A DNA stretch of 64,000 nt from contig JBAZKF010000001.1 of NCBI GenBank assembly GCA_041650895.1, positions 637,181-701,180 of the forward strand. Direction: 5' to 3'. Below are positions 18,999-62,297 of this stretch, one piece after another (within the stretch, counting starts at the first letter, position 1; each line of letters begins with the position of its first letter). This DNA is from Patescibacteria group bacterium (lineage in GTDB: Bacteria; Patescibacteriota; Patescibacteriia; 2-01-FULL-39-33). Both the position numbers and the translations under genes were made by a program. The notes below the pieces were generated by a model. That model saw nothing but the letters and a program-made list of their open reading frames with translations, had not been told where the DNA came from and searched no databases.

Positions 18999-18999
18999 A

Positions 19000-22099: not shown

Positions 22100-22104
22100 T
22101 AATT

Positions 22105-22134
22105 AAAAAATCCTCCTAAAAGGAGGATTTTTTA
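22105..22134. terminator. bidirectional terminator
   Basis: AAAAAATCCTCCTAAAAGGAGGATTTTTT. Confidence 0.7.
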
Positions 22135-22887: not shown

Positions 22888-22933
22888 AATTAATTAAAAT
22901 ATACCCGCGTTTTGACCGCGGGTATAGGATAAT

Positions 22934-23356: not shown

Positions 23357-23468
23357 AATAATTTATTAATATAGTTATATTATATAACAATTATCCCTGG
23401 ATTAAAATATGGAAAAGTCAAGTATTAATAATTCATTTATTTTTAATATTCTGTTATAATATAGTTAT

Positions 23469-23906: not shown

Positions 23907-23909
23907 TTT

Positions 23910-24137
23910 ATGAATAATCAGGAAAAAGGAGTTATTATAAATCAAGAAGGTGATTCATTTATAATAAAATTTAATGATGGACGAGAATTGCCTTGGCCTA
24001 AGAAAAATATTAATTGGGTAATTAAAGAAGGTGAAATAGTAAAAGTTACTGTTTCCCCACAAGTACTGGAGAATGATTTTCAGGAAGATCAGGCTAAAAA
24101 TCTATTAAAAACAATTTTTCAAACAAATAATGCTTGA
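23910..24137 (+). CDS. hypothetical small protein
   Basis: Tight spacing between hsp20 and the vanW-like gene. No recognisable motifs. Confidence 0.35.
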   Translation: MNNQEKGVIINQEGDSFIIKFNDGRELPWPKKNINWVIKEGEIVKVTVSPQVLENDFQEDQAKNLLKTIFQTNNA

Positions 24138-36440: not shown

Positions 36441-36910
36441 TAGAGGGTAAAAACTTAACACCAAACTCTTTCCCAAAAGATAATCAAAATTAAGTTGTTT
36501 TATCCGCCAATACTAATATTGTAGCGGTATAAAAAAGGGAAAACAGTGGTATCTGAAATGAATTTTGTCCAGGACAAAGTTCGCCAAATCGGATCCCTCT
36601 GTTTTTTCTTAACTTGAAAAATGACTGTTAGGAAAAGTATTTTGACAACTGAATAGTGGTAAAAAGCACCAAACCAAAGAATTTAAATTTGAGTTTTTAT
36701 GAATTCGTTTCCGCCCCCGCGGAGTAAATCGAATTCAATACAATACTTTCAATCCAACTTTATGACAGCCGGTTCTCCGGTGCGCCCTTAGCGCAAGTCA
36801 TAAAGCGAAAAAAACGGTTGGCAACTGATCGTAATCTAGTTGCAAAGCCAGTTGAATGAATTTTTTTTATCTCACTTCGGTGTTGATAAGGAACCCTTTC
36901 ATTCTTCTTT

Positions 36911-38384
<1,474 letters not shown>

Positions 38385-44938: not shown

Positions 44939-45177
44939 GACGGTTGCATTGAAGCCGGCTAAAACTTCTTTCAAATGAAAATCCAAAGATTTCTTATTTG
45001 AAATAGTTGGCGGAGGATGAAAGTGGCAAAATATAATTTTTTGTTTTGTAAGCTGGATTACTTGCTTTATTTGGTTAGAATTGGTTAACAGTAAACAAAA
45101 ACCGGCTATATTAAATAGCTGGTTTTTGTTTGGGATAACTTAAGTTTGAATAAAGCCTTATGAACGTTCTCTCATGT

Positions 45178-45247
45178 CGGGGTGCGGGGAATTGAACCCC
45201 GTCTACACCCACCCCATGGGCGCGTACTACCGACATACTCCACCCCG
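45178..45247 (-). tRNA. tRNA-Pro(GGG)
   Basis: Minus strand reads CGGGGTG GA GTAT GTCGGTA GTAC G CGCCC ATGGGGT GGGTG TAGA CGGGG TTCAATT CCCCG CACCCCG A. Confidence 0.7.
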
Positions 45248-46933: not shown

Positions 46934-47914
46934 ATGAAAAGTTCAGCCGTGGTTTTATGTTTAATCCTGGCGTCCGCTTTGATTTTATCGTCGGGTTGCG
47001 CCACTAATCGAAGAGTTGAAACGGTCGTTACCACCACATCGGAAAACGGCATAACGACTGTTACTGAAGAAACGGTTATTACGGAAGAAGTTGTCTATCC
47101 CGATCCTGATCATTATTATTACGTTGTCGGCAGTGTTACGCATCGCGTCTACTTCGGCGTGGATACGGTTTGGGTCCGTCCGGTGCCGGTTGATTATGTG
47201 GTATTAAATTATTATTGGCGTCCGACGTCTTATTACCGCAGTCATTTTCATCGGTCGCCCGGTCATCATCACGGTTATGTTGACGTGAATGTGGGTATTT
47301 ATGGTGTTTCAATGACTCATCATCGGCCAAGATCTTATTCTTCGCCATCGCGGCATGAACCGCCGCGATTGCGACCTGAGTCCAGGCATGGGCAACCGCA
47401 ACACATGTCACCGCCACGACAGCAGACGCAACATGGCAGTCCCAGCATGAATCGCTCGGTAACGCCGTCGCGGCCGTCTTATGCGTCACCGTCTCGGCCA
47501 CAAACACCGCAGACGCCGGCGAGATCAGTAGCCCCAGCTCGACCGATGCGTAGTGCGCCCCAAACTGTCCGGCCGACTTCGCCCGGACAGCAACACAATT
47601 CCAATGTAAACCATTCGCCGGTACCTTCGCGTCAAGCACCGTCGCGGCCGTCTCATGCGTCACCGTCTCGGCCACAAACACCGCAGACGCCGGCGAGATC
47701 AGTAGCCCCAGCTCGACCGACAACGCGAAGTATGTCGCCGGTTCGTTTACCACAACGCAGTGCGCCGGCAAGATCGGTGGCACCCGCCCGGTCGTCTCGG
47801 CCAACTCATAGCGTGTCGCCCGCTCGTTCGCCACAACGCAGTGCGCCCGTCAATCGATCCCGGTCCGCTCGTCCTACAAATAGTGGCGGACGTGGTAATG
47901 GTCGTAACAAATAA
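46934..47914 (+). CDS. secreted lipoprotein with Pro/Ser/Arg-rich low-complexity C-terminal repeats
   Basis: SD AAGGAGA. Lipobox LSSGC. An internal ~67-nt segment is directly repeated (47479-47545 and 47653-47719), which encodes the repeated SPSRPQTPQTPARSVAPARP. Confidence 0.6.
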   Translation: MKSSAVVLCLILASALILSSGCATNRRVETVVTTTSENGITTVTEETVITEEVVYPDPDHYYYVVGSVTHRVYFGVDTVWVRPVPVDYVVLNYYWRPTSYYRSHFHRSPGHHHGYVDVNVGIYGVSMTHHRPRSYSSPSRHEPPRLRPESRHGQPQHMSPPRQQTQHGSPSMNRSVTPSRPSYASPSRPQTPQTPARSVAPARPMRSAPQTVRPTSPGQQHNSNVNHSPVPSRQAPSRPSHASPSRPQTPQTPARSVAPARPTTRSMSPVRLPQRSAPARSVAPARSSRPTHSVSPARSPQRSAPVNRSRSARPTNSGGRGNGRNK

Positions 47915-48195: not shown

Positions 48196-49440
48196 ATGAA
48201 AATTATCGCCGATCTCCATATCCATTCCAAATATTCCCGCAGTTGCAGTCAAGATCTGACTTTACCCAATATCGCCAAATGGTGTGAGCGTAAGGGTATA
48301 GGACTGGTTACTACCGGTGATTTCACTCATCCGGCCTGGTTTAAATCAATTAAAGAAGAATTAATTCAAGCGGAACAGGGATTTTTTCGGCTTAAAGACG
48401 ACCCCTCCACGGTTAGGTTTGTTTTAGGCGGAGAAATCAGTTGTATTTATACTCAAGGAGGGAAATGTCGTCGTGTACATATTTGTTTGCTTTTGCCGTC
48501 AATTGAAGCGGCGGAGGAATTAATTCAAGAGTTAATTAATCGCGGCTGCAATCTCAAATCCGACGGTCGTCCGATTATCGGCTTGTCGGCCAAGGAGCTG
48601 GCGCGTTTGGCTTTTGAGATTGATGAAAATATTATCGTCTTTCCCGCGCATGTGTGGACGCCATGGTTTGCCGTGTTCGGTTCCAAGTCGGGATTTGATT
48701 CGCTTCAGGAATGCTTTGAAGAATTGACACCGAAAATTTTTTCAGTGGAGACGGGGCTATCCTCCGATCCATTAATGAACTGGAGTTTGTCATGTTTGGA
48801 TGAAATAACTCTGCTCTCTAATTCTGACGCGCACTCGCCAGCCAATCTCGGACGCGAAGCTAATGTATTTGATTTTAAGGAAAACGAATTCACTTATCAA
48901 GAACTGAGAAGAATAATAAAAGAAAAAGATCGAAAAAAATTTCTGATGACCTTGGAGTTTTTTCCCGAAGAAGGCAAGTATCATATTGACGGCCATGCCG
49001 CTTGCGGTTTTTTTTGCGTGCCGGAAAAAAGCAAACAGTTGGATAACAAATGTCCTAAGTGCGGCAAGTCGCTTGTTCTAGGCGTACTCAATCGGGTTAG
49101 CTTATTAGCCGATCGGAGCGAGATCAAGGCGGATGAGTTCATTCCCTATAAGAATCTGATTCCTTTGCAGGAAATAATCGCCGACGTTTTGGAAGTCGGC
49201 AAAAGTTCCAAGAAAGTCCAGAGAGAGTACTTAAGTTTAGTCCGCCATGCCAATGAGTTTTCCGTGTTATTGGATTCATCCTTGGCGGAATTGAGGGAAA
49301 TCACTTTACCGGAAGTCGCCGAAGCCATAATCGCCATGCGTCAAGGCCAGGTGGAGATTTCCGCCGGTTATGACGGAGTTTTTGGAAAGATAAAAATAAA
49401 AAATGCCCGACTTAGGGTCGAACAGAAAAAAAAATTTTGA
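48196..49440 (+). CDS. PHP-domain nuclease, endonuclease Q-like
   Basis: N-terminal PHP motif IADLHIHSKYSRSCS. C-terminal zinc-finger CPKCGKSLVLG. ~414 aa matches the EndoQ architecture. Ends with a TGA stop. Confidence 0.55.
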   Translation: MKIIADLHIHSKYSRSCSQDLTLPNIAKWCERKGIGLVTTGDFTHPAWFKSIKEELIQAEQGFFRLKDDPSTVRFVLGGEISCIYTQGGKCRRVHICLLLPSIEAAEELIQELINRGCNLKSDGRPIIGLSAKELARLAFEIDENIIVFPAHVWTPWFAVFGSKSGFDSLQECFEELTPKIFSVETGLSSDPLMNWSLSCLDEITLLSNSDAHSPANLGREANVFDFKENEFTYQELRRIIKEKDRKKFLMTLEFFPEEGKYHIDGHAACGFFCVPEKSKQLDNKCPKCGKSLVLGVLNRVSLLADRSEIKADEFIPYKNLIPLQEIIADVLEVGKSSKKVQREYLSLVRHANEFSVLLDSSLAELREITLPEVAEAIIAMRQGQVEISAGYDGVFGKIKIKNARLRVEQKKKF

Positions 49441-49465
49441 AATTAAAACAAAATTTTTACCAAAG

Positions 49466-49497
49466 AAAAAATCCCCTTCTGCAGAGAGGGGATTTTT
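49466..49497. terminator. bidirectional terminator
   Basis: AAAAAATCCCCTTCTGCAGAGAGGGGATTTTT. Confidence 0.65.
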
Positions 49498-49512
49498 CCC
49501 TTGAGAAAATTC

Positions 49513-49608
49513 TTATTTCTTCTTTTTTTTAGCAGCTTTCTTTTTCTTTGCTGGTTTCTTTTTTGCAACTTTTTTCACAGCTTTCTTCGCTTTTTTCTTT
49601 TTTGCCAT
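49513..49608 (-). CDS. putative 31-aa poly-lysine/alanine peptide
   Basis: MAKKKKAKKAVKKVAKKKPAKKKKAAKKKKK. Strong SD AAGGGGGTGA 8 nt upstream. Missed by the ORF track because it is under 60 aa. Confidence 0.4.
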   Translation of the reverse strand: MAKKKKAKKAVKKVAKKKPAKKKKAAKKKKK

Positions 49609-49818
49609 AGATAGCTCACCCCCTTTCTTTTATAAGTGTAAGCTGAAACGATTTTCTCTGCAAAAACTATTTCAACTAAATATATTATAGCATACTTTTT
49701 TTTTGACAACAATAGTTATCCACAACTGTCAATAATATTTTTTAAAATTATTTTTCATTATTGTCGGAAAATTAATTAAGTTGAATTATTTTTTTTATTC
49801 CGTTAATATATTCATATT

Positions 49819-50391
49819 ATGACAAACAACATGACAGCGGAACAATTGAAAGAAAAATACCAGAGCTTCCTTAAGACGGAGTTTACGGTTTTTGATCTGG
49901 AAACATCCGGTTTGGATCCACTGCGGGATGAAATTCTGGAAATCGCCGGCATTCGGTTGCGCGGCGATGAAGAATTGGCTCGTTTTGAAGCTTTAATCCG
50001 CCCCACTCGTCCGATTCCGCCGGAGGTGGAGAAGATTAATGGTTTAAATGAGATATACTTATTGGTCAATGGCCGACCCAGCAGTCAGGTGTTGGTTGAG
50101 TTTTTGTCTTTTATTGACGGCTCTATCATTGTCGGCCACAATATTAAAGAGTTTGATTGGCTATTTGTTTTGTCGCATATTAAACGCCACGTTTTGAATG
50201 CACCGCAACATAAAATGATTGATACTCTGGAGTTATCCCGTAAGTTGTTGTCTTTACCGCAATATAATTTAACAGCGGTGGCTCGCCATTTTGGACACGA
50301 AAATCGTAATGCTCATCGCGCTATGCCTGATGTGGAAGTCAACGCTAAAGTATTTGTTAATCTTATGGAGCAAATGCTTAAAGTTCAATAA
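49819..50391 (+). CDS. dnaQ: DEDDh 3'-5' exonuclease (DNA polymerase III epsilon-like)
   Basis: Exo I FTVFDLETSGLDP, Exo II HNIKEFDW and Exo III HRAMPDV are present. A TTATCCACA DnaA box sits upstream (49717-49725). Confidence 0.75.
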   Translation: MTNNMTAEQLKEKYQSFLKTEFTVFDLETSGLDPLRDEILEIAGIRLRGDEELARFEALIRPTRPIPPEVEKINGLNEIYLLVNGRPSSQVLVEFLSFIDGSIIVGHNIKEFDWLFVLSHIKRHVLNAPQHKMIDTLELSRKLLSLPQYNLTAVARHFGHENRNAHRAMPDVEVNAKVFVNLMEQMLKVQ

Positions 50392-50497: not shown

Positions 50498-50695
50498 TTA
50501 TTGTTGCCGGGTTACAGGGATGTTGAAAAGTTTGGCCACTGCCGGCAGAATTTTCGTTGTGATAAACGGCTTGACCTTGCCCATAAGGAAGGGCTTTACT
50601 GTACTGCGCCAGAAGGGCACCAGGTATTTTTCCGCTACCTTAAACTTGTATTCAACGAAGAGGCCGATAACCAGAATTGTAATGGCGACGAACAT
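50498..50695 (-). CDS. hypothetical 65-aa membrane-anchored Lys-rich protein (last gene of the minus-strand operon)
   Basis: SD AAAGGAGAAC. N-terminal TM helix. Preferred over the antisense ORF 50486-50728, which has neither SD nor features. Confidence 0.45.
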   Translation of the reverse strand: MFVAITILVIGLFVEYKFKVAEKYLVPFWRSTVKPFLMGKVKPFITTKILPAVAKLFNIPVTRQQ

Positions 50696-50777
50696 GATAG
50701 TTCTCCTTTGGTGACGAGTCGCTCTTAGCGGCTTCGTCTGTTTTTCACTAAAATTGTTTAAATGAACGATTAACCAG

Positions 50778-52400
50778 CTATTCCGCAGAAGTCGACGGAG
50801 CGGTCGTCGGCTCTACTCTTTCCGCTTGAGGCAGGCCCCCCATAACCGGCTTAAAGCTGACATTAGCTTCCAATTGATTCTTCCAAGCGCCAGAGTCGGC
50901 TGATTCCATCCAATAAACGCATTGGTTGGCTGCATCAGTCAATATCACATCAGGACGGTTGCCGGCGATATAGTGTTTAGGGTCATTACTGTCCAAGGTA
51001 ACGACAGTGGTCAGCCAATAGAAGCGGATCTTATCGTTTACCCTGGTGATATAGGGCCGTTGCTCGACCGGTCGATTGATTGTCCAGTCAAAGAATTTAT
51101 GATCGCCGATAACTTTATTGGTTACGGCGGTTACTCCCAGCATTGGTTCTTTCTGATGATGAGAAAAAATGAATATTTTACTCAAGCCGTCAGCCGGCAC
51201 GAACAAAGAGACGGATAATCCTTGCGATTTTTCCGAGTAAGGCTGAAGCGAGAAGTAGTGATAAAGAGCGTCTTTGCCGCCGAGTTGCCCCAGACGGAAA
51301 AAGATAGTGAAGGGCTGATCGTTCATATCCTCGGGCATATTGGCGATTCTGACATCGCCGTTATGTATCCAAGGTAGAGGAGCGGATAGTCCTTTATGGA
51401 ACTTGAAGCTTTCAGCAATGTAACGGGATACTTTATAAGACAAGACATTCTGTCCATCCAGGAATGGGTGGTTTTTCATTTTGGCCGGCGGCACATAATA
51501 GCCGCAACCGAACATGACTCGCCTGATGCTTTGCCAGACGTTGTCTGGCGATTGTTCAATTATCTGTACTCCGCCAAAAATCGGCCGTGGAAACAGTAAT
51601 CCTTTCCAACGGATCAGTGGTACTACTTGCACCATCTTTCCAGAATCGTCTTTAAGGTAGATAACTCCGTCCGGTTCATAATTGAAGTAACGCCATAACC
51701 CGAAAGCGCGGCTGACGGCGGTGTAAGTATTTCTGCTCCATTTAAGGTTTTCTCCAGTTTCGAATTTGACGTTAATTAGGTTTTGCAACCCCCAATCCGG
51801 AGCCGGAGATGTGCCATCAACATTATAAACTTGGCGAATTCCAGAGAAGATACGGGGTAAAAGAGGAGTAGGCTCAATGCCCATAGTAAAACGGTATTGA
51901 CTGCCGATCCGCACAAAATGCGGTTCAGCCGGTTGGACGTTGTCTTGCACTAATTCCCGCGCTTGCGAGAAAACAGAGTTAAGCGGTAAGATCCGCTCGT
52001 AAGCCGTTTCCGGTAATTGCTCCAATTCTACGAAATCATTGACTTTGTAGCAGTAATACTGCGCCAGATAGTGATGAATCGGCTTGCCGACCTCATAAAT
52101 ACCGAAGCCAATAAGCAGATAGAGTACTACTAACAGTAGTTTACCGCGCCATCGATATTTGCGGTACAGCCAACGGAAAATGCCTATGGCCGCAATAATC
52201 GCCAAGAAAGAACCAAAGAACTTTCTGACAGTAATGACGGATCCGTATACATACCCGCGAGCTATAAATAGCTCTAAGCCGGTTGCTATCAGGAGAATAG
52301 TAAAAATCAACCAGTGACGTTTAGCGAAATTCATTGACCAGACGGCGCTGTGTTTGAAAAGCCAGAAAAGCCGACCGTGTTTATCTTGTTTTTCACTCAT
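50778..52400 (-). CDS. hypothetical polytopic membrane protein with large extracytoplasmic domain (540 aa)
   Basis: SD AGGAGATAG. Four N-terminal TM helices, then a ~400-aa Trp/Tyr-rich domain. Unassigned. Confidence 0.55.
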   Translation of the reverse strand: MSEKQDKHGRLFWLFKHSAVWSMNFAKRHWLIFTILLIATGLELFIARGYVYGSVITVRKFFGSFLAIIAAIGIFRWLYRKYRWRGKLLLVVLYLLIGFGIYEVGKPIHHYLAQYYCYKVNDFVELEQLPETAYERILPLNSVFSQARELVQDNVQPAEPHFVRIGSQYRFTMGIEPTPLLPRIFSGIRQVYNVDGTSPAPDWGLQNLINVKFETGENLKWSRNTYTAVSRAFGLWRYFNYEPDGVIYLKDDSGKMVQVVPLIRWKGLLFPRPIFGGVQIIEQSPDNVWQSIRRVMFGCGYYVPPAKMKNHPFLDGQNVLSYKVSRYIAESFKFHKGLSAPLPWIHNGDVRIANMPEDMNDQPFTIFFRLGQLGGKDALYHYFSLQPYSEKSQGLSVSLFVPADGLSKIFIFSHHQKEPMLGVTAVTNKVIGDHKFFDWTINRPVEQRPYITRVNDKIRFYWLTTVVTLDSNDPKHYIAGNRPDVILTDAANQCVYWMESADSGAWKNQLEANVSFKPVMGGLPQAERVEPTTAPSTSAE

Positions 52401-52411
52401 GGTGCTATCTC

Positions 52412-53185
52412 CTATTCCCTTTCTTGGTCGGAGTTATTCACTACTCCTTCAGGGCTGCCAGGACTGCTTTCACCTCGGGCAAAAGCTTTTAGATTAGCTC
52501 TCGCCGCCCTTAAGCGTTCATCATTCAACGGAGTGGCTTTGGCCTTGTCGCCTACAAGATTAATGCTGGTTTGCACAGTTGCAAGTTCTTGTTGCAGGGC
52601 GGATAGCTCGGAAGTCGCCGTTGTTGCCGGCAGTTCTTCTGTTTCTGCAGGAGTCGCGGTAATAACCACTGGTTGTTCCGGCTGATTAGCCGTTCTAACT
52701 GCGTCTTTAAGGGCGCTTCGCCAATTGGCTAAACCGCCGGTTAAGTTATTCCACCAGTTTCTGGCTTTCTTTTTGGCTTCATTGCCGACTTGGATTTCTC
52801 CGGTTTCAATCCTGTCGATTACGTCTAGATGCTTCAGTAATCTTTCACGCTTGCCCAAGAGTCGCATAACCATGGGACCGCAATAGAAGCCGACCATCGT
52901 AAAAACGACAGCCATTAACAACAAGAAGGAATTGACTGCGGGGCCATGCACCATCATATAGAGGCATAATCGCCAATTAATGAAACCCAGAAGCAAGGCC
53001 GAGTAAAAGCGTCCTCGCGCTTTACGACCTAAGATGAAACCGGAGACTTGATCGGCCGGTAGGCGCTTACTGTGGGTCAGATTGTAAACGAAAGAGAATA
53101 CAACTACCCCAAAGTATTTATCAAGACCGAACCAGACGATACCGAGAGCAGTGAACAACAGGGCATACGACAAAAAAATTAGCAT
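52412..53185 (-). CDS. hypothetical membrane protein (3-4 TM) with cytoplasmic Ala/Thr/Glu-rich coiled tail
   Basis: SD AAGGAGA. 11-nt gap to the downstream gene. Confidence 0.5.
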   Translation of the reverse strand: MLIFLSYALLFTALGIVWFGLDKYFGVVVFSFVYNLTHSKRLPADQVSGFILGRKARGRFYSALLLGFINWRLCLYMMVHGPAVNSFLLLMAVVFTMVGFYCGPMVMRLLGKRERLLKHLDVIDRIETGEIQVGNEAKKKARNWWNNLTGGLANWRSALKDAVRTANQPEQPVVITATPAETEELPATTATSELSALQQELATVQTSINLVGDKAKATPLNDERLRAARANLKAFARGESSPGSPEGVVNNSDQERE

Positions 53186-53243
53186 GGTGATTCTCCTTGG
53201 TTCGCGGTTGGCAACCGCATTAGTTGAAAGTTATTCCTTTACG

Positions 53244-54536
53244 TTAATCAGTTAGTTCTTCCTTAGACGCTCTTTCTCTTAAGATGTTCATTTTTGGTCG
53301 GTAATGTTTCTTGAGCGTGGCGATGGCCCAGAGCTGTTTTGCTTTAGGCCAACCGTCATAGCGCTTATAGAACAGATTCTTATCGCAGATAAAAGTGATA
53401 AGCAGCCGCCAGGGCTGTAGTCGCGCAATCAGCATGCCGACCAATTCCCATATTTCTTCTTCCAGGTCCGGACGGGGTTGCAAGAGCAAAAGTTTAAGTT
53501 CATCTGACAATTCATCAAAACTTTCAACTTCGTTTTGTTCTAAGCGTTTGATCAGCCGTTCCAGATCTTTGTAGATTTTGGGAATTTTGGTGCCAAGGCT
53601 TCTCAGACGCGCCTTTTTTTGCGGTTCCGTCAAATGAAGATAATCAATTTCGGGATCGGCGGCGGAAAGGATATCAATCAGCAGGCAATCGCGTTTTTCT
53701 TCTAGGATTTCGGGGTGCTCCCGATACCAGGAAAGATTAACAGTGATCAGTCCGGCTTCTTCCAATCGATCGATTAAATGCTTGTTGGTCAATGGGAAAA
53801 TGTCAATTTGTGTTGCTCGATTTTTTTTGGCCAGCTTGCCATCCTCAACAACCATGAAGTCTCCCCCCGGCAGATTACGGAAGACAAAAACGCCGTTAAG
53901 CGCCCGACTGTAAAAACAGCCTAATTTTTCGTAGCGCCAGTCCGGTATTTCTACCGTACGGTATCGCAAGTTGCCATACTTTTGAGCGCTAGCGATAAGC
54001 TGGCGGGTTAATTCCCTGTTAGCCCAGTTATTGCCGGGGGCAAGAAATTCTTCCGTCAGTTTTCTTTGATGTTGAGCCGCTTGAATCAAGTCATCGCAAT
54101 AACTTATAACCGTGATATCTTCTACTAAAAGCAGATCCAGGATTGTTTCATAAGATGTCAGTTCCTGATCAATATCCAGGGCTATGCCGGAAGTCGTAGT
54201 GATATCCGCAATAACCTGGCGGAACTTTTTGAAGAACTCCGCCATCAGCGAACGATCAAACGAACTGAAGGGAAAGTAAATCGGTTTATGCTCTTGATCG
54301 GGGGAAAGAATTATTGCTAGTTGATTAGCCACGCCATGTGACAGATACAGCGGATTGCCGGTTTCTTGGGCGATTTCCGGCGACCAACCGATGCCATCAA
54401 TGGAAAATGAGGTTAGTTGAGTCGGGGGAAGTCCCAATCGTTTAAGGCAATCGTTATATCTTTCAATAAGTTGCGGCGTGTCCACCAGAGTCAATCCTTG
54501 GCCGAATAATCCGGCATCAGCAAGTAATTTATCCAT
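53244..54536 (-). CDS. hypothetical soluble protein (430 aa) with N-terminal FGQGL motif
   Basis: SD AAAGGAATAAA. Its N-terminus MDKLLADAGLFGQGLTLVDTPQL shares a motif with the N-terminus of the 56557-57789 protein. Confidence 0.55.
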   Translation of the reverse strand: MDKLLADAGLFGQGLTLVDTPQLIERYNDCLKRLGLPPTQLTSFSIDGIGWSPEIAQETGNPLYLSHGVANQLAIILSPDQEHKPIYFPFSSFDRSLMAEFFKKFRQVIADITTTSGIALDIDQELTSYETILDLLLVEDITVISYCDDLIQAAQHQRKLTEEFLAPGNNWANRELTRQLIASAQKYGNLRYRTVEIPDWRYEKLGCFYSRALNGVFVFRNLPGGDFMVVEDGKLAKKNRATQIDIFPLTNKHLIDRLEEAGLITVNLSWYREHPEILEEKRDCLLIDILSAADPEIDYLHLTEPQKKARLRSLGTKIPKIYKDLERLIKRLEQNEVESFDELSDELKLLLLQPRPDLEEEIWELVGMLIARLQPWRLLITFICDKNLFYKRYDGWPKAKQLWAIATLKKHYRPKMNILRERASKEELTD

Positions 54537-54617
54537 TTTATTCCTTTCAGTTCAACCCCGCCAATATTTTGGAGGGGGTTAGGTTTTTTACCATAACCCC
54601 CTCCGTTAGGAGAGGTC

Positions 54618-56567
54618 TTACTTGTGCGATTCCAGCCAGTTTTGGACTGCCTGGTTGGCTTCCAGTTGAATCATCATTTGTTCGCTTGCCCGTTCCACTT
54701 CGCGACGATGACCCAAGTCAACAATTGCTACCATATTGTCCAGGTAGCGCATCGCCTCTTGGAACCTGATTTCTGCGAACGATTTGCCTCGCATATTCTG
54801 TTGCATTAATCCTAATACCATAATCTTTTGTTGGTCGTAGGGTTGACGGAAAAATATTTCCGGATCGGACATCCATTCTTCAGGTAAGTCAAAGTCTAAT
54901 AGCCGATCATCAACGGCCCGTTGAATATTGCGGGTGTCGCGCGAACTGAATTTGGGGAATTGTCTTTGGACTTCTTGATAGAGCTTAGCAAAAAACTTTT
55001 GTTCATTAATATCATGTTCTTTGTTCACTCGGTTGAAAATATCCAAAATAGTCCGTTCCCTGGGTTGCTGATAGCCGACGTAGGTCTCGGCCATACTGCC
55101 GATTAAACGTTGGGCAAATAAGTATTTGTAATCGTCAGGATCGGTCATGGCGATGAAAGCAGGATCGATTTCGGCGATGCGCTTCCACCATAGGTGGTCC
55201 TGATCCAGGAAATCTTGCCACGTTGTGGCTCCTTCAATTTTGAAGCGGGTCACGATACGCGACAGTAGAGCCGAATCCAGTTGGTCGGGAATATTAGTCA
55301 GAAAGAACACTACGGAGTTGCCTCGCCAAATAGCCGAAGCTCCTTCCAAATTGGTCAGAGCCGCACCGATAACCTCACGGACACCGGCAGATACGCCTTG
55401 GCGAGTCCTGTCTTCATAATTAACTTCAGCATCATCGGCCGGTCCGAAAGAAATCCTGTCAGGATTTAAGATACGTTGCCACCATTCCTCGGCCCGTTCT
55501 CTGGATCCGCCTTGGTAGGTAGAAACGATATTGGGGGGATGAGGATCAAATACATAAGGTAATTCCAACCACTGACAGAGATCATAAAGCATGGTGGAAA
55601 AGGCGCCAATCATCATGGTTTTACCCGTACCGGGAATGCCAAACCCTATGCTGGCGGTCGGCATACCTCCTAAATCAAACATGACGTTGCGTCTTTCCGC
55701 TACTTTATAACAAGCTGTGCGTACTGCCAATCGTTGAAAAAAGCGTTTGGCATCGCGATTGCCGACAATAGTGTTGATATCAACCCGCTTGAACTCCACG
55801 CTAATCGCGTTGTTTAGTCCGTTTTCAAAACCGGAAATGGTAAAATCTTCCCCTGCCAACTTGTAAGTTATATCGGTAAAGAATTGAGTGTATTCCAACG
55901 AGTCGCGACGCAGTTTGATTTCATCCAGTGCTCCTTTAGCCGCCACTTGGACGGCTTTGAGCAGATCCAAATCATTCCTGACTTTTCCTGATTCCTGGAC
56001 GAATTTTCCCATATAGACTAGCAGGCAGTTAAAACCGCGCAGATAGTCGGTCAGACAGATTTCCGGATAGCCCGGAAAGTCCATGGATAGGGAATCCAAC
56101 TTTTCACCCTTGTAACGCGACAATGACCAAAAGACGAAAGAGGCGAAGCTGAACTGGGCGACGGCCGCAGCCGTTGCCAGTTTTTTGGAAAACTCCGCTT
56201 TTTGCCCTTCATTCAGTCGTTGGCGCGAATTGTCATCAAGCAGTTTAGCCAATCCCGAACTTTTAGCATACATCTCCACCACGTAACAGCCAATGCCGAT
56301 TCCCGTGTATAAGGAGTTAAGCAGTTGGTTGACGTTGCCTGAATTAATTGTTCTGTTGGGATTGTATGGTTTAACGAGCTCCAGCCAATTGATTCTTTCC
56401 TCCATCGGCGCTGATTCGCTAAACTTTAATCCGCCAGCGGTCGAAGGAGGTGTTAGCGGCTTCTTTGGCAGCCAACCGGCGTTTTTTATTAATTTGTCGG
56501 CAAAAGCATCAAAAGATCTGAGTTGCTCTGCCGTAATCGGCACGCAGGATCCGTTTTTATCTCCCAT
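54618..56567 (-). CDS. classic-clade AAA+ ATPase with ~280-aa N-terminal domain and C-terminal extension
   Basis: SD GGAGGAC. Walker A GFGIPGTGKT. Sensor-1 FFLTN. Arg-finger region SALLSRI. A hydrophobic segment AAAVAQFSFASFVFWSL lies upstream of the ATPase core. Confidence 0.75.
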   Translation of the reverse strand: MGDKNGSCVPITAEQLRSFDAFADKLIKNAGWLPKKPLTPPSTAGGLKFSESAPMEERINWLELVKPYNPNRTINSGNVNQLLNSLYTGIGIGCYVVEMYAKSSGLAKLLDDNSRQRLNEGQKAEFSKKLATAAAVAQFSFASFVFWSLSRYKGEKLDSLSMDFPGYPEICLTDYLRGFNCLLVYMGKFVQESGKVRNDLDLLKAVQVAAKGALDEIKLRRDSLEYTQFFTDITYKLAGEDFTISGFENGLNNAISVEFKRVDINTIVGNRDAKRFFQRLAVRTACYKVAERRNVMFDLGGMPTASIGFGIPGTGKTMMIGAFSTMLYDLCQWLELPYVFDPHPPNIVSTYQGGSRERAEEWWQRILNPDRISFGPADDAEVNYEDRTRQGVSAGVREVIGAALTNLEGASAIWRGNSVVFFLTNIPDQLDSALLSRIVTRFKIEGATTWQDFLDQDHLWWKRIAEIDPAFIAMTDPDDYKYLFAQRLIGSMAETYVGYQQPRERTILDIFNRVNKEHDINEQKFFAKLYQEVQRQFPKFSSRDTRNIQRAVDDRLLDFDLPEEWMSDPEIFFRQPYDQQKIMVLGLMQQNMRGKSFAEIRFQEAMRYLDNMVAIVDLGHRREVERASEQMMIQLEANQAVQNWLESHK

Positions 56568-57789
56568 TAATCAAGTCCTCCCCGTTAAAGGTTATGTATT
56601 TGAAGCTGGCAAATCCCAACTCGGAGAGTTGGTGATCATTGACGGCTTGTTGCAATAAACAATGAGGCAGAATGCAATAATGTCTGACTGCGGAAACGTG
56701 CCGTTGCTGGCATTCCATGGAGAGTTCGTTGATCTTAAAAACTTCTCGGACTTTGCGCCGCAAGGGCCGGCCATAGACTTCTTGCCGTTCGGAAATAACT
56801 TCTTCTTCAGTCAGCAATAAGACAAAGTCGTCTTCTTTCCGGCTGAATTCCGTCATAATCCGACACCAAGCTTCTTGCCATTTGTCAGTGTTTGCTGACA
56901 GGTTATCGCAAAGGAACTTGGAATATAACGGCCCTAAACCGATACGCCTGATAATTTTAGGATGGATATTAACCAAACGATCATCAATATCCAAAGCCAG
57001 GATTCCGAGCTGGGGAGCCCGCGAGCCGACATTGGTAATGATGTGCAAGAATTCTTTCCAGGTTTGCCCGTACTCTTCCAATGGTTCGCAATCATTGTCA
57101 TGTTCAAAATTCATCAGATATAAGTAGGGGCGGTTAGTGGTAAAATCAAAACAAGCCCAAGCGAAACTGTAACATCGCGCCTTAGGATTGTCTGATTTTA
57201 ACGCTGTCAATTCTCCAGCCGTAAACGGCAGGAATAATTTGTCCTCCGCTAACATGGAAAAATAAGATCTTTCGCCTAAAATCGCCAGAATATCTTCTGC
57301 TTCAGTCAGTTGATTGAACATGTATTCCAGCGCTGTCCTTTTCAGACGGTCCGATCCGGGCAAACTAGCCAGTCGTTCATCGCGTTGCAGATAGTCAATC
57401 CTTAGATTATCAAGCTCAATAAAATTAGGAAAGCCGGACTCGGTCAAGTCCACTCGCAGGCGATGCTGGTTGTTGTGGATATATTTCATTCTTAGGCATT
57501 CCATGGTGTAAGAAAAACGTTTTAGAAAATCAATAATGATGCCGGTTTGATTATCGGCGTTGTTGCCGATTTTATGACACCAGGATAGCAGAATTTTTAT
57601 TACCCGGAGCTGCTGAGCGAAATACTTGACGTATTTGTCAGTATCTTCCAGTAAGGCAAAATCCATACTGCCTCCATCAGTAAAATCTCCGCCGACTAAG
57701 CTATTGAGCTCGTCAGCAGATCGTCTTAAATCAGCGGGGGTAATATTAACCGTACTTAATCCTTGGCCGAAAAATGATAGTCCTCCCAT
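56557..57789 (-). CDS. hypothetical protein (410 aa) with N-terminal FGQGL motif
   Basis: Start set at MGGLSFFGQGLSTVNITPADL, 7 nt after SD AAAGGAG. Overlaps the AAA+ gene by 11 nt. Confidence 0.5.
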   Translation of the reverse strand: MGGLSFFGQGLSTVNITPADLRRSADELNSLVGGDFTDGGSMDFALLEDTDKYVKYFAQQLRVIKILLSWCHKIGNNADNQTGIIIDFLKRFSYTMECLRMKYIHNNQHRLRVDLTESGFPNFIELDNLRIDYLQRDERLASLPGSDRLKRTALEYMFNQLTEAEDILAILGERSYFSMLAEDKLFLPFTAGELTALKSDNPKARCYSFAWACFDFTTNRPYLYLMNFEHDNDCEPLEEYGQTWKEFLHIITNVGSRAPQLGILALDIDDRLVNIHPKIIRRIGLGPLYSKFLCDNLSANTDKWQEAWCRIMTEFSRKEDDFVLLLTEEEVISERQEVYGRPLRRKVREVFKINELSMECQQRHVSAVRHYCILPHCLLQQAVNDHQLSELGFASFKYITFNGEDLINGR

Positions 57790-57880
57790 AACAACTCCTT
57801 TCATGGCCGTTAGCCATACTGAAAGAAAAAGGAGGAGATCCAAGATTAAGGATCTCCTCCGTTGCGTGTAGTTGTGTGTA

Positions 57881-59206
57881 TTATTTACCCTCATCTCCTC
57901 CGAAGAATGATTCTTTTCTCAGATCAAAACCGTAGTTTTTTTGAAACAGTTCAATTTGTTCCTCTACGTCATTTCTGAATTGTCGATCCTGTTGATTGGA
58001 AGCCGCCATAATTTCGTGGTAGAGTTTGAGCCACTCCGGTATTTCTTGAAGCGCTTTAACCAACGCTTTTTGGGCCGCGGCTCGGATTTCCGCCATACTG
58101 GCCATACTTCTGGCGTCAACTCCCCGGCCGGCTTTGTTCAATTCTTCGGCCGTCGCCAAATCTTGATGGGATTTAGTGGCTTCCAACCAGGAACGCACCG
58201 TTGTCTGGCGGTATTCCACCTGTTTGGTGATCATGGCTTGCCAGGTGAGATTGATGGTCAGAAGGTCATTAAGTGTTTGGACATGAAGGTCCAATTGATG
58301 CGCAAAGTTTTGCGCTTCCTGGGCGATTGCCATACAAATATTATATTTGCCTTGCAAGGCATTCAGTGATTGCTTCAAATCGGAAGTTTTCTGGTCTTGC
58401 TTGGCAAAGCCTTTGTCTGTCCTATCCATTGTTACCAATGTCTGTTCGGCCTCGGCCAACTCACCTTTGAGCGCGACAATCTGTTGGTCAAGTCTTTCGC
58501 AAGCTTCGTTTGCTTGCGTGTGGGTTTCAAACGCCGCCCGTTTCTGCGCCTTGTCTTGTTCCAGTTGCATTTTCTGTGACTGAGCGCGAGCTTGCATGGC
58601 TTTCAAAAGCCGACCGCAAGCCAATTTGTAAGCCGTCAGACTATCTTCAATGGTTGCGTTGCTGAGGCGATCGCGCATTGCCTTATTGATACGTTCTTTG
58701 GTCGCCGCTTCCAATTGTTGGGCCGACGCTAAGTCAGTCTGGGCGTTGCGGATGGCGCTTTGGCGGAACAAACGTTTGGCCTTGGCCTTGGCTAAGGCAA
58801 GTTCAGCCTCTTTAATTCTGTTTCCGGCTTGTACCAGGGACGCCTGTTCTTGTGGCGTCATTTCTTTGAGTTGGATTACCTCGGCTCCCAATCCTTCCAG
58901 TATGATATTGAGACTTGCCATCATGCCGGCCAAGTCCGTTTTTTCTTTGGCCAAACTGGCGCGAACTTGCTCCCAGTCGGCCTTCTTTAAGCGACTCTTG
59001 ATGTCTATACTAAGAGTCGGACCTTGGCTTTTGGTGGCTGTTTCCAGACCTTGTCGCATATCGCCAAGTATGGCGTTGATATCAAAGCCCAAATTTATTG
59101 ATGCCGGTTCTTGCTCCAACTTTTGGCTGGCGGTATCCAAATTTTGTAGCATACTATCCAAGAAATTAGATCCGTCAACTCCACCGCCCGTTTGTTCTGT
59201 CGTCAT
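57881..59206 (-). CDS. long coiled-coil protein (Gln/Ala/Lys/Glu-rich heptads), first gene of the operon
   Basis: SD AAGGAG. Predicted extended coiled coils across most of its 441 aa. No catalytic motif. Confidence 0.55.
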   Translation of the reverse strand: MTTEQTGGGVDGSNFLDSMLQNLDTASQKLEQEPASINLGFDINAILGDMRQGLETATKSQGPTLSIDIKSRLKKADWEQVRASLAKEKTDLAGMMASLNIILEGLGAEVIQLKEMTPQEQASLVQAGNRIKEAELALAKAKAKRLFRQSAIRNAQTDLASAQQLEAATKERINKAMRDRLSNATIEDSLTAYKLACGRLLKAMQARAQSQKMQLEQDKAQKRAAFETHTQANEACERLDQQIVALKGELAEAEQTLVTMDRTDKGFAKQDQKTSDLKQSLNALQGKYNICMAIAQEAQNFAHQLDLHVQTLNDLLTINLTWQAMITKQVEYRQTTVRSWLEATKSHQDLATAEELNKAGRGVDARSMASMAEIRAAAQKALVKALQEIPEWLKLYHEIMAASNQQDRQFRNDVEEQIELFQKNYGFDLRKESFFGGDEGK

Positions 59207-59544
59207 GATTACAGCTCCTTGTTGTCGCCGGCCCGCTAAGCGGCGCGACTTTTGGTTGTTTCTAACAGTTTAATCGCCAATAATACTTGAGTGTATCTTG
59301 GTGTTACCTAATTTACTTTTTCCTCCTTATTTTTAAAGCTATTAAGTTGTCAAAGTCCGCACCCTTACGCCAAATTCTTTGGCATAAAGCGATTGATTAC
59401 CTTAGCAAAAAAAATAATATTTGTCAACTAATTTGTCATAATAATAGAAACAGTCTCGGATTAAAGTAGTCATTTAGGCATTTTTTGTTTAAATTTAGAT
59501 AATTTTTGTGGTTATTCTCTAACTTTTTAGTAATTTTTTGGCAT

Positions 59545-59575
59545 AAAAAAGCCGACCAGGCAAGCTGGTCGGCGT
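59545..59575 (-). terminator. rho-independent terminator (minus strand) separating the membrane-protein triplet from the AAA+ operon
   Basis: Minus strand reads CCTTACGCCGACCAGCTTGCCTGGTCGGCTTTTTT. Confidence 0.7.
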
Positions 59576-59589
59576 AAGGTGCTGATTGT

Positions 59590-60462
59590 TTATGAGCCGA
59601 AGCCGTTGGCGTCGGGCCCTTTTGGTTTGCTCCGTCCCGCCTTCCGCGTCATCCTCGTTTTCTTCGGGCCGTCTTTCGATTCCCCTTCCGGCTTATCAAC
59701 GGGTTGCTCTGGGGGTTGCTCCGGGGCGGGATCGGCGGTAGCAGCAGCGCCGTTGGCGGTAGCAACAGCCTGGCCGGCCGGAATGTTTTTTACCGTATCA
59801 GTTCGCTCGTAAGCGGTTTGATCTTCCGGACAGCTTTGTAACTGATCCCTTATTTCGTCATAATCCCTCTGTAATTCGTTAATCATCGTTTGCAGCTTCT
59901 CATTGTCTTCCCGTTGCTTTTTTAGAGTCAACTGGTACTCGCGATACTTGCGATAGGAGAATAAGGAAACGAAGTAAGCAACGATGATCGGCAATATCAG
60001 CCACCACGAGAAAAGTAACAGAATAAGCAATAAGCTGGCCATCCCTAGGGCCAGACCGGCAACCATACCGTGGATTATTGCGCCCATTAAACAGACAAAA
60101 ATTGCGCCTAACAGACTACTGATAACACCGTAGCCAAGCTCCATTTCAATAGACTTAATAACGGCTTTAGCATTCTCTTCTCTGTACTCTTGGTATGTCG
60201 GGATAGGGAACCCCTTAATCTTTTTGGTGATGTTTTTTTCCCATAGGTAACTCCATAGATAATCATGCGCATGGAGACATTCCATCCACCACTGGGGCGG
60301 TAACCAGAGAACTTTGAAACTCCACCAGTGGTCGTGTCGTTGTTTGATGCTATTAACCAGGACTATGACCGGTATGGTCGACCAAGTAAAGAGCGTTAAT
60401 GAGCCTATCAATATTCCGATGTAGAGAGAGTGCCAAAGGCAAAGAGTGAGCAGAGTGTTCAT
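59590..60462 (-). CDS. membrane protein, paralog 3 of a tandem triplet (4 TM, WLPPxWW motif, basic Pro/Ala-rich tail)
   Basis: Shares VLVNSIKQRH...WLPPQWW and the helix layout with the two upstream genes. Confidence 0.6.
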   Translation of the reverse strand: MNTLLTLCLWHSLYIGILIGSLTLFTWSTIPVIVLVNSIKQRHDHWWSFKVLWLPPQWWMECLHAHDYLWSYLWEKNITKKIKGFPIPTYQEYREENAKAVIKSIEMELGYGVISSLLGAIFVCLMGAIIHGMVAGLALGMASLLLILLLFSWWLILPIIVAYFVSLFSYRKYREYQLTLKKQREDNEKLQTMINELQRDYDEIRDQLQSCPEDQTAYERTDTVKNIPAGQAVATANGAAATADPAPEQPPEQPVDKPEGESKDGPKKTRMTRKAGRSKPKGPDANGFGS

Positions 60463-61253
60463 TGTTCGTCCTTTCCTGTTGGGGGCGGTGTTTCTTTTTT
60501 CTTTTTCGTTGTTGGCTGTTTTCTGGTGTGCGTTGGTTTGTTCTTTGGCTTATTATCTAGCGTCTTTTTGGGGGTATCCGCTCGTTTCTGTCTCGGTGGT
60601 CCTATATTCTTCGCACAAACATTGGTAACAGCGGTAGTTTGATCAGTCGTATTAGCCTCTGTTTCTTCTAATCGTTTGCGCAAATCATTAACGCAGTCAC
60701 ACATTCTTTCGCTCATAGCTATCAGCTGGTTCATAGTTGTCAGATTCTCGTCATATCTTTTTTTCTTTTCTTGGATTGATTGACATTTGTGATGAAAAAA
60801 TCGGTAAATGAGATAGGTAATAATGATCGGAAAAGTCAGCCACCATAGATAGCCCAGTAACAGACTGGCCGTCACCAAAGCCAGACTGACGGCCGTGCCG
60901 CAGGTTACTGCTATTATCAGACAAGAGAGAAGTACGGCGAAAAATCCGTCAATGACCTCGTCTTTCGTTACCTCATTGATAGCTCTAATTATCTCCTTAG
61001 GTCTTGCGTTAGCGTACGTTTGGTAGGTTCTGATATCACCAATTATCCAAGGGAAACAGTCTATTATGTAGTCGATGGCATAAAAGCAGGCCATCCACCA
61101 CCATGGAGGTAACCAGTCAACCTCGAAAGGTCGTCGGCGGTTATGACGTTGTTTGATACCATTGACCAAGACTATGGTTGGGAGAACCGAATAAGCAAAA
61201 AACGTCAATGCGGCTACTAACGTGCCGATGTAAAAGATAGTTAACGCGTTCAT
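60459..61253 (-). CDS. membrane protein, paralog 2 of the tandem triplet
   Basis: VLVNGIKQRH...WLPPWWW. The C-terminus KKKKETPPPTGKDEQ is identical to paralog 1, and ~50 nt of the 3' DNA is identical. Confidence 0.6.
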   Translation of the reverse strand: MNALTIFYIGTLVAALTFFAYSVLPTIVLVNGIKQRHNRRRPFEVDWLPPWWWMACFYAIDYIIDCFPWIIGDIRTYQTYANARPKEIIRAINEVTKDEVIDGFFAVLLSCLIIAVTCGTAVSLALVTASLLLGYLWWLTFPIIITYLIYRFFHHKCQSIQEKKKRYDENLTTMNQLIAMSERMCDCVNDLRKRLEETEANTTDQTTAVTNVCAKNIGPPRQKRADTPKKTLDNKPKNKPTHTRKQPTTKKKKETPPPTGKDEQ

Positions 61254-61978
61254 TGTTCGTCCTTTCCTGTTGGGGGCGGTGTTTCTTTTTTCTTTTTCGT
61301 CTTCGCTCTCGGCCTTCCGGCGCGCGTCGGCTTTTTTGGGTTTGGGGAGGCGTTGGTTGTTGCAATTGACGTTGCTATAGCGAACAGCGCTGATTTCAAT
61401 TCTATAATCTCCTCGTCAATAACCTTTTGCCTAAGCTGATAGCTTTTGATAGCGCGCCAAATAATGTAAGCAACTCCGCCGATCAGCCATAACCACCAAG
61501 TGTATTTGAGTAGTAAGCCGATTATCGAAACAATCATAAGCAGTAATGTGCCGAATGAAAACAAGAGAAGCCAGGTGCCAGCCGCGACCATTGCCGGGAG
61601 TAATACTCCTAATACAAACGTAATAAAAATCATTGCACTAAGTGAGATATCCAGAGGGTGCTCATTAAGCAGTCTCTTTTTACCGCATTCTACCCAGCCG
61701 TCCAGCGTCTCATTGAAATTATCTTTGACTCCCGAGGTGAAAAGAATAATGTAGTAATAAATAAAAGCATGATAAGCGATTAGCCAATCGGGTGGTAGCC
61801 AAACAGCTTTATAATCTTTCCGACGGAATCGGCATTTGGCGCCGTTTACGATAATAACCAGTAAATGGATGAAAAAGGCTGAAAAAATGGCAAAAAATGC
61901 CAGTTCGGTGCCAAGCCGTACCAGATGATCAAAGTATAACGAAAAAGTCCAACTAATTGCTAAAAGTAACATTTCCAT
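61250..61978 (-). CDS. membrane protein, paralog 1 of the tandem triplet
   Basis: Start at MEMLLL after SD AAGGAGAAC. WLPPDW motif. Same C-terminal KKKKETPPPTGKDEQ. Confidence 0.55.
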   Translation of the reverse strand: MEMLLLAISWTFSLYFDHLVRLGTELAFFAIFSAFFIHLLVIIVNGAKCRFRRKDYKAVWLPPDWLIAYHAFIYYYIILFTSGVKDNFNETLDGWVECGKKRLLNEHPLDISLSAMIFITFVLGVLLPAMVAAGTWLLLFSFGTLLLMIVSIIGLLLKYTWWLWLIGGVAYIIWRAIKSYQLRQKVIDEEIIELKSALFAIATSIATTNASPNPKKPTRAGRPRAKTKKKKETPPPTGKDEQ

Positions 61979-62297
61979 GATGTTCTCCTTGCCTTTTATG
62001 GCTGTTTTGGTTTGCGCAGTAATGTTTTTAAGTTTTGAATGTGCCGATCTTCGTACCACAATATCATATAAGCGGTGAAAAGTCAATGGTTAGTGGAGAA
62101 GTTGGGGAAAAGTCAGCAGTTTCATTATATAAGTCAGAAAATAAAGGAATTGGGAGACAGAAGCTATTTTTTGATTGATCTGTTTGGTTTTTGTCGACAA
62201 AGTTATAAAACTTGTTTAAATTTAGGCAAATTATTCATTAATTTTGTCTTGCCGCGTGCTTATTTATCCGTATATTTTCTATTTTTTTATTTATCTC

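Follow-up and report, generated by a model that had tools for sequence, protein, structure and literature searches.

The operon and its boundaries

A stretch of 64,000 nucleotides from a Patescibacteria group bacterium (assembly GCA_041650895.1, contig JBAZKF010000001.1), called the window throughout, carries seven consecutive minus-strand genes, G1 to G7, between positions 50498 and 59206. These genes very probably encode one functional, membrane-associated AAA+ system, in which G3 is the predicted motor. In order of transcription, they are G1 (57881-59206), the first cistron, which encodes a protein of 441 amino acids, G2 (56557-57789; 410 amino acids), G3 (54618-56567; 649 amino acids), G4 (53244-54536; 430 amino acids), G5 (52412-53185; 257 amino acids), G6 (50778-52400; 540 amino acids), and G7 (50498-50695; 65 amino acids), the last cistron. 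All seven open reading frames (ORFs) are present with the sizes and coordinates that an earlier, sequence-only reading of this DNA had given, and each is preceded by a GGAG-type Shine-Dalgarno sequence, as that reading also held. For G2, the longest ORF begins at 57894 (445 amino acids) and the JGI gene call at 57804, while the start at 57789 is preceded by AAAGGAG 5 nucleotides upstream.

The genes are closely spaced, with distances from G1 to G7 of +91, -11 (an overlap), +81, +58, +11, and +82 nucleotides. The sequence-only reading, which described gaps of 80 nucleotides or less and overlaps of 11-14 nucleotides, is roughly correct in this respect: three gaps are just above 80 nucleotides, and G5 and G6 are separated by 11 nucleotides rather than overlapping.

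Upstream, the operon is bounded by a terminator-like hairpin on the minus strand (59551-59573; a 9 bp stem with seven GC pairs, followed by TTTTTT), which ends a neighbouring unit of three genes, U1 to U3. Between this hairpin and G1 is an AT-rich intergenic leader (59207-59550, minus strand) that ends in the AAGGAG Shine-Dalgarno sequence of G1. The leader contains promoter-like hexamers at 59439-59411 and 59307-59280, which are consensus matches only and serve here as putative promoters. Downstream, two terminator-like hairpins (50480-50463 and 50441-50419, minus strand) lie 3′ of the G7 stop codon, and the operon is thus bracketed by terminators as first described. Its reported location between unlinked rRNA genes also holds, since the 16S gene (36908-38382) and the 23S gene (from 62789), both placed by Rfam, flank the region.

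Conservation of the gene order

An alignment of G4 was scanned against one genome per species, covering 185,579 species, and 447 species genomes encode a G4 relative. Eighty loci were fetched, and the window proteins were searched against their ORFs. Nearly every locus contains G1-G2-G3-G4-(G5)-G6 in the same order and orientation. The order of G1 to G6 recurs in approximately 80 loci drawn from five or more phyla, far beyond what chance would produce. The gene-order comparison proposed alongside the sequence-only reading therefore has a positive outcome, with the order kept across phyla.

The loci come from several classes of Patescibacteria, including Buchananbacteria, Falkowbacteria, Sungiibacteriota, Taylorbacteria, and Saccharibacteria, and from many genera of Flavobacteriaceae, Desulfobacterota, a gammaproteobacterial metagenome-assembled genome (MAG), Trueperaceae, and one unclassified bacterium. 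The window's G3 is 100% identical to a protein on a JGI contig of 957,791 nucleotides and 90% identical to one from a "Patescibacteria group bacterium" MAG, which places the host among the CPR/Patescibacteria. Three distant G3 homologues that were looked up independently occur in loci that agree with this pattern. Where G6 is present, it is always preceded by a protein of 170-300 amino acids with two or three transmembrane (TM) segments.

Several lineages carry a reduced or altered version of the cluster. Desulfonema magnum and a Trueperaceae MAG contain G1 to G4 only, and a more distant four-gene version is found on replicons of Vibrio vulnificus and V. parahaemolyticus. Hidden Markov models confirm the four-gene core in Vibrio, Sinorhizobium meliloti, and Shinella. 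In Sinorhizobium and Shinella, the G1-G4 core is followed by a gene for a DUF2333 protein with two TM segments, and in Shinella this gene overlaps the G4 stop codon; in Rhizobiaceae it is translationally coupled to G4. The conserved unit is a four-gene soluble core, G1-G4, with a replaceable two-gene membrane module, G5-G6, since G1-G4 occur alone or with DUF2333, and since G7 and U1-U3 are found only in the closest relatives. Of the seven-gene unit first described, six genes are conserved and G7 is confined to the two closest relatives.

The Rhizobiaceae loci (L086, 9001-11517; L088, 8001-10446) link DUF2333 to the DUF6638 system, DUF6638 being the family of G4. In the S. meliloti strain, the genes for the AAA+ protein and the DUF6638 protein are separated by an inserted IS4 element and a gene with an endonuclease domain. 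In Flavobacteriaceae, the genes that intervene between G3 and G4 (NUDIX and others) are local insertions and are not considered partners, and the neighbourhoods share no further conserved partner gene across phyla. A DnaQ/RNase T-type exonuclease gene lies downstream on the opposite strand in the window and in a distant Falkowbacteria locus (L003, 17870-18445). In the window (region 48196-50391) it adjoins a gene for a 414-amino-acid protein, the counterpart of which in the 90% relative carries the Pfam domain MJ0043_C. The shared exonuclease may reflect residual synteny or a functional link.

An anti-phage or conflict system moved between lineages by horizontal transfer would be expected to leave traces of the kind seen here: the distribution is patchy across phyla, the G3 and G4 trees do not follow taxonomy (two Buchananbacteria are placed apart), and a type I restriction-modification gene lies a few kilobases away in the Trueperaceae contig. 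The neighbour-joining trees of G3 and G4 are star-like and leave the direction of transfer unresolved. However, none of the 5027 models of PADLOC-DB v2 matches the cluster, with best E values of 0.01-0.4 confined to coiled-coil or TM segments, and the cluster was not found in GenBank phages, IMG/VR contigs, or mobilisable plasmids, nor were there PHROG matches of note. No nuclease, protease, or other effector domain was detected in its proteins. Moreover, its neighbours are housekeeping genes rather than defence islands, it is apparently inherited vertically across many Flavobacteriaceae genera, and it is kept in the tiny genomes of Patescibacteria. A defence role, which the sequence-only reading had listed among its options, is therefore very unlikely, and a phage or plasmid origin likewise finds no support in these searches.

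The AAA+ ATPase G3

Classic-clade AAA+ ATPases drive major remodelling processes in eukaryotes and archaea, including those of the endosomal sorting complexes required for transport (ESCRT), endoplasmic-reticulum-associated degradation (ERAD), the peroxisome, the proteasome, and SNARE recycling. Judged by its sequence, G3 belongs to this clade, with a Walker B motif that is atypical, and both its motifs and its profile alignments agree with the clade named in the sequence-only reading. The protein has an N-terminal domain of approximately 255 amino acids of unknown type, one AAA module (approximately residues 260-450), and a C-terminal region of approximately 200 amino acids that includes the lid. 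The Pfam AAA family (PF00004) matches it with an E value of 2.4e-5 and 25.2 bits against a cut-off of 21.2, whereas the NCBIfam CDC48 model reaches 15 bits against a cut-off of 803.

In a search of the PDB with a profile of 26 G3 homologues, only the ATPase core is matched, with Cdc48 first (3e-12), followed by VAT, AFG2, Rpt4, NVL, PEX6, Vps4, and TRIP13; PEX6 is the top match when G3 is searched as a single sequence. The two Cdc48 rings align with one and the same stretch of G3, residues 314-442, which indicates a single AAA module. The N-terminal 256 and C-terminal 203 amino acids of G3 have no relatives in the PDB or Pfam searches. At the sequence level, neither an MIT domain nor any other family was found in 16 G3 N-terminal domains or by the PDB profile search. 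A hydropathy scan finds no TM segment in G3, and the protein has no peptidase domain, in contrast to FtsH-type AAA proteases, which carry a TM anchor and an M41 domain.

The Walker A motif, GIPGTGKT in the window, follows the pattern G-x-P-G-T-G-K-[ST] in all 26 sequences. The Walker B motif instead ends in Asp-378 and Asp-379, which lie opposite the Asp-Glu pair of Cdc48 D1 and D2 in the profile alignment, so that the catalytic glutamate is replaced by aspartate. This Asp-Asp pair is likewise invariant (26/26), and G3 departs from the hhhhDE pattern with its catalytic glutamate. Pore loop 1, S-T-[YF]-Q-G-G-S, aligns with SmwyGeS of Cdc48 D2, and its residues Ser-349, Gln-352, Gly-353, and Ser-355 are invariant. 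The sensor-1 residue Asn-425 is invariant within TN[IL]P, as is the arginine finger Arg-437 within LSR(x)3RF, where Arg-441 is nearly so. Based on established AAA+ biochemistry, the invariant aromatic pore loop and the arginine fingers suggest that G3 acts as a ring translocase on polypeptide.

The predicted coiled-coil protein G1 and the hairpin after its gene

G1 is a soluble protein without TM segments and is predicted to form a long coiled coil preceded by a flexible N-terminus, with a conserved C-terminal region (...YG[IF]D...SFF). Its homologues occupy the same position in 77 loci and also occur in Vibrio and S. meliloti (E 3e-28). G1 has no relatives in Pfam or the PDB, where it matches only unrelated coiled-coil proteins with non-significant E values. 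A relationship to ESCRT-III or PspA was considered and rejected: at the sequence level, none of 17 G1 homologues matches Snf7 or PspA_IM30 at E≤0.1, and hhalign assigns a probability of 1% to the G1 profile against E. coli PspA.

The termini of G1 are variable or disordered. In flavobacterial G1 proteins (loci L001, L019, L025, and others), the two ends bear near-identical acidic di-leucine peptides: DDFDLL occupies residues 3-8, and DDLL[SG] forms the very end of the protein, where it is preceded by a Pro/Glu/Gly-rich linker. An acidic-LL peptide ends approximately 60 of 75 G1 proteins. These terminal acidic di-leucine peptides look like docking or engagement peptides.

Between the G1 stop codon and the G2 start codon is an intercistronic terminator-like hairpin (57831-57860, minus strand) with an 11 bp stem containing seven GC pairs, followed by TTTTTCTTTC. 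An identical hairpin is present in one close relative (L005, 6671-6700), and a hairpin of different sequence occupies the same position in the other (L006, 4810-4836). Hairpins of differing sequence also follow G1 in L007, L009, L014, L015, Falkowbacteria, and Desulfonema. In total, a hairpin is found at 17 of 77 G1-G2 junctions, compared with 2/79, 2/82, and 4/78 at the other junctions. This enrichment directly after G1 suggests that G1 is expressed more strongly than the genes downstream of it, and the hairpin is proposed to bring about an excess of G1, either as a partial terminator or by stabilising the mRNA.

The FGQGL proteins G2 and G4

G4 is a soluble protein whose N-terminal half is alpha/beta and whose C-terminal half is all-helical, and it serves as the signature gene of the system. 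It is a full-length member of Pfam family DUF6638 (PF20343), with 131.2 bits against a cut-off of 27 and an E value of 6.3e-38; the match spans residues 15-413 and positions 5-398 of the 439-position model. All 120 listed G4 homologues carry PF20343 and are single-domain proteins of 411-460 amino acids. The literature searched contains no mention of DUF6638 or PF20343 and a single, uninformative mention of DUF2333.

G2 is a soluble protein in which a disordered N-terminal extension with FFGQGL is followed by a helical domain and then by an alpha+beta domain with long strands. Structure predictions for G2 and G4 yield confident models that have no counterpart among solved structures. The two proteins are not paralogues: their hhalign probability is 1%, and their predicted architectures differ.

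G2 has invariant polar residues (Asp, Ser, His, Lys, Arg, and Cys), as might be expected of a novel peptidase. Classic AAA+ unfoldases are often paired with compartmentalised peptidases, and an ATP-dependent proteolysis or quality-control system would have G2 or G4 as the peptidase and G3 as the unfoldase that feeds it. Such a novel AAA+-peptidase pair is disfavoured and is the least probable of the alternatives considered.

The motif FGQGL is present near the N-terminus of both G2 and G4 in the window, as the sequence-only reading noted. The N-terminus of the G4 family is conserved as L-x2-A-x-L-[FY]-[GR]-x-[GE]-L-[IV]-x-[VI], with [FWY]GxG[LIVM] in 31 of 62 G4 proteins and YRSEL at this position in flavobacterial G4. 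In the AF2 (AlphaFold2) model, the motif segment is packed against the body of the protein. In G2, FGQGL is confined to the window organism and its 88% relative, and other G2 proteins lack the extension. Approximately 25 amino acids of the G2 N-terminus (window 57700-57789) resemble the G4 N-terminus (54450-54536), and 14 nucleotides (TTCGGCCAAGGATT) are identical, which suggests that the G2 extension is a recent local copy of the G4 N-terminus.

The SHP box of p97 cofactors has the consensus h(x)1-2F/W(x)0-1GxGx2L (PMC7403338). An SHP-like pattern occurs in 4 of 62 G4 proteins, and FGQGL was accordingly rejected as a p97-type SHP box; its presence in half of the G4 proteins likewise led to its rejection as a family-defining motif.

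The membrane module G5-G6 and the peptide G7

G5 is a polytopic membrane protein with a disordered cytoplasmic tail. Hydropathy analysis yields two strong peaks, and four hydrophobic stretches can be distinguished by eye; the sequence-only reading had proposed three or four TM segments. The tail had been read as a coiled coil; in alignments of relatives it is instead a disordered linker that ends in a short conserved motif, DPxxxLxxF[TN]K. By sequence, it has the form of a tether. The 176-amino-acid protein at the G5 position in Flavobacteriaceae is homologous to G5 (hhalign 96%, E 2.8e-9).

G6 contains three N-terminal TM helices, rather than the four of the sequence-only reading, and a conserved domain of approximately 430 amino acids that is predicted to lie outside the cytoplasm. 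Its charge distribution places the N-terminus and the TM2-TM3 loop, with six Arg/Lys residues, inside and the 430-amino-acid domain outside. A G6 homologue with two extra TM helices keeps the same topological parity. The G6 family is small, with 161 representatives among 1.84 billion proteins, and its alignment has approximately 38 invariant positions. G6 has no relatives in the PDB or Pfam, and a relationship to DUF2333 was rejected (hmmsearch E 0.19; hhalign 2.8%).

Fusions of G5 and G6 (proteins P0328, P0374, and P0385) agree with the predicted topology and indicate that G5 and G6 work together. These fusions, together with the coupling of DUF2333 to G4 in Rhizobiaceae, strengthen the case for membrane association of the system.

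G7 is a peptide with a single TM segment. Its homologues are found only in L005 and L006 (E ~1e-30), and unrelated small TM proteins occupy its position in other lineages. Searches of Pfam, NCBIfam, PADLOC, and PHROGs gave no significant match for G1, G2, G5, G6, or G7, either singly or as sets of 16-18 homologues, and profile searches matched none of them to a PDB sequence. The profile searches that were to accompany the sequence-only reading thus agree with it, as no non-ATPase protein matches a characterised family.

The membrane module also bears on a translocation or extraction role, in which a G3 hexamer would push a substrate out through a complex of G5 and G6 (or DUF2333), or pull it from that complex, with G1, G2, and G4 as chaperones, adaptors, or cargo. 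Bcs1, PEX1/PEX6, and Cdc48 in ERAD provide precedents. The intact pore loop of a classic AAA+ ATPase is consistent with this role, as are the obligate membrane module with its large external domain in most lineages, the G5-G6 fusions, the replaceable membrane partners, and the resemblance of the G5 tail to a recruitment tether. However, G5 (approximately four TM segments) and G6 (three) resemble no known channel or translocon, several genomes have the four-gene core without adjacent membrane genes, and the neighbourhood has no conserved cargo candidate that bears a signal sequence. This role is rather unlikely.

The external domain of G6 could alternatively sense an envelope cue, in response to which the AAA+ ATPase with G2 and G4 would switch G1 or another target; G4 might then be a nucleotide-binding, GHKL-like partner-switch protein. 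An envelope-sensing switch of this kind is decidedly unlikely.

Neighbouring features of the window

Upstream of the operon, U1-U3 (59590-62086, minus strand) are three tandem paralogous genes for membrane proteins of 290, 264, and 278 amino acids. These proteins contain a WLPPxWW motif, a coiled-coil segment, and Lys/Pro-rich tails that end in KKKKETPPPTGKDEQ. A perfect repeat of 53 nucleotides is found at the junctions of the U genes (60457-60509 and 61248-61300). U1-U3 were considered as part of the system and rejected, as their occurrence is limited to the two closest relatives and a terminator stands between them and G1. In the 90% relative, approximately 5.9 kb without called genes lies upstream of the U homologue, on the side where the window has the 23S gene.

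The 16S and 23S genes are 24.4 kb apart in the window. Behind the 16S gene come genes for tRNA-Ile, tRNA-Phe, and tRNA-Pro; another tRNA-Pro gene lies on the minus strand at 45176-45247. The GC content is 25-31% at 18000-26000 and approximately 40-46% elsewhere in the window; this low-GC segment may be foreign or otherwise unusual.

Two further plus-strand genes lie between the 16S gene and the operon. The first (41585-44938) encodes a protein of 1117 amino acids with an N-terminal TM segment and C-terminal Cys-rich repeats (CxxWSxCS...QxRxC). Its counterpart in the 90% relative carries Pfam DUF5060, and it is probably a surface glycoside-hydrolase-like protein. The second (46934-47914), which is overlapped by a long antisense ORF, encodes a protein of 326 amino acids. 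The N-terminus of this protein looks like a signal or lipoprotein sequence, and its tail, rich in Pro, Ser, and Arg, is highly repetitive, with SPSRPQTPQTPARSVAPARP as the repeat.

A proposed protein-remodelling machine

The sequence-only reading had taken the operon to encode a membrane-associated, ATP-driven machine made of unrecognisable proteins, and the conserved gene order, the fusion proteins, and the orphan families all support this central idea. A more specific model is that G1-G6 form a membrane-docked AAA+ protein-remodelling machine that acts on a coiled-coil scaffold. The probability of this model as stated is roughly 0.4.

According to the model, a G3 hexamer at the cytoplasmic face of the membrane would thread polypeptide through its pore. 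G1, which is probably made in excess given the terminator-like hairpin that follows its gene, would form a coiled-coil scaffold or assembly, and its flexible termini would provide the entry points at which G3 engages G1 and disassembles or recycles the assembly. G2 and G4 would serve the motor as adaptors or regulators. The disordered G5 tail, with its conserved motif, would hold the soluble complex at the G5/G6 module, and the large external domain of G6 would link this module to the cell envelope. Candidate cellular jobs include envelope or membrane remodelling, division, and vesicle or surface biogenesis. The model draws on the conserved gene order, the four-gene core with its coupled DUF2333 gene in Rhizobiaceae, the G3 motifs, the G5-G6 fusions, the G5 tail, the charge-based topology of G6, the hairpin after G1, the variable G1 termini, and the lack of phage or defence matches. 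The retention of the cluster in a Patescibacteria genome contig of approximately 0.96 Mb also speaks for it.

Several observations weigh against it. The Asp-Asp Walker B motif could mean slow hydrolysis or switch-like behaviour instead of processive unfolding. The coiled-coil assignment of G1 derives from its composition and from non-significant PDB matches to coiled-coil proteins, and G1 has no detectable relation to ESCRT-III/PspA or to any polymer-forming family. Most flavobacterial loci have only a weak hairpin after G1 or none. In addition, the core occurs without an adjacent membrane gene in Vibrio, Desulfonema, and Trueperaceae.

A broader and more doubtful extension of the remodelling model is that the cluster represents an unrecognised bacterial membrane- or envelope-remodelling apparatus, independent of ESCRT/PspA. 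Here, G3, together with G2 and G4 of novel fold, would cycle the G1 scaffold on the G5/G6 or DUF2333 module, and the apparatus would be kept in ultra-small Patescibacteria and marine Flavobacteriaceae for a basic function, for example in division, vesiculation, or the upkeep of the surface.

There is no characterised relative for five of the six conserved proteins or for either accessory domain of G3, and approximately 0.9% of a genome of about 1 Mb is devoted to the cluster. If it encodes a new AAA+ system, it would represent a new piece of bacterial cell biology with new protein folds. DUF6638, a family without an assigned function whose constant partnership with G1, G2, and G3 is documented here, would then gain one, as perhaps would DUF2333. 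Variants of the cluster in the genetically tractable Sinorhizobium and Vibrio make the question testable.

Comparison with known systems

The system fits no described system. Its motor comes from a known superfamily, and its firm memberships are limited to the AAA+ classic clade and DUF6638. Four eukaryotic or archaeal systems with classic-clade motors nevertheless share parts of its design.

Cdc48/p97/VAT provides the best PDB match of the G3 core and is an unfoldase that works with dedicated cofactors (Ufd1-Npl4 and p47) at a membrane complex in ERAD. The FGQGL motif of the window superficially resembles the SHP box. In contrast to the D1-D2 tandem of Cdc48, G3 has one AAA module, and its N-terminal domain has no sequence similarity to the double-psi-barrel N domain of Cdc48. 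The system also has no ubiquitin-like components.

PEX1/PEX6 is likewise a classic-clade AAA+ motor, and it extracts or recycles protein at a membrane. The anchor tail of PEX15/PEX26, which docks this motor, parallels the G5 tail. However, PEX1/PEX6 is a hetero-hexamer of double-ring ATPases, its homology to G3 is limited to the ATPase core, and the present system has no peroxisome-like cargo receptor.

In the NSF/SNAP/SNARE system, a classic AAA+ motor and its adaptors disassemble a coiled-coil substrate for reuse, much as is proposed here for G3 and G1. The PDB matches of G1 to syntaxin and t-SNARE are non-significant (E 0.05-1) and of coiled-coil type. NSF contains two AAA rings and a defined N domain, whereas the present system has neither SNARE motifs nor membrane-anchored coiled coils.

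Vps4 (CdvC) and ESCRT-III share further elements of the design. Vps4, which is among the PDB matches of the G3 core, is a classic-clade AAA+ ATPase that forms a single ring and has an aromatic residue in its pore loop. It acts at the cytoplasmic face of the membrane on a helical partner with flexible termini, to which G1 would correspond as a possibly polymeric protein in probable excess, and in both cases short terminal motifs are found at the ends of disordered linkers. In contrast to Vps4, G3 has an N-terminal domain without a detectable MIT domain and a Walker B motif with Asp-Asp rather than Asp-Glu; G1 has no sequence-level match to Snf7 or PspA_IM30, and G2, G4, G5, and G6 have no ESCRT counterparts. 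The resemblance to Vps4/ESCRT-III or NSF/SNARE would be one of logic rather than ancestry.

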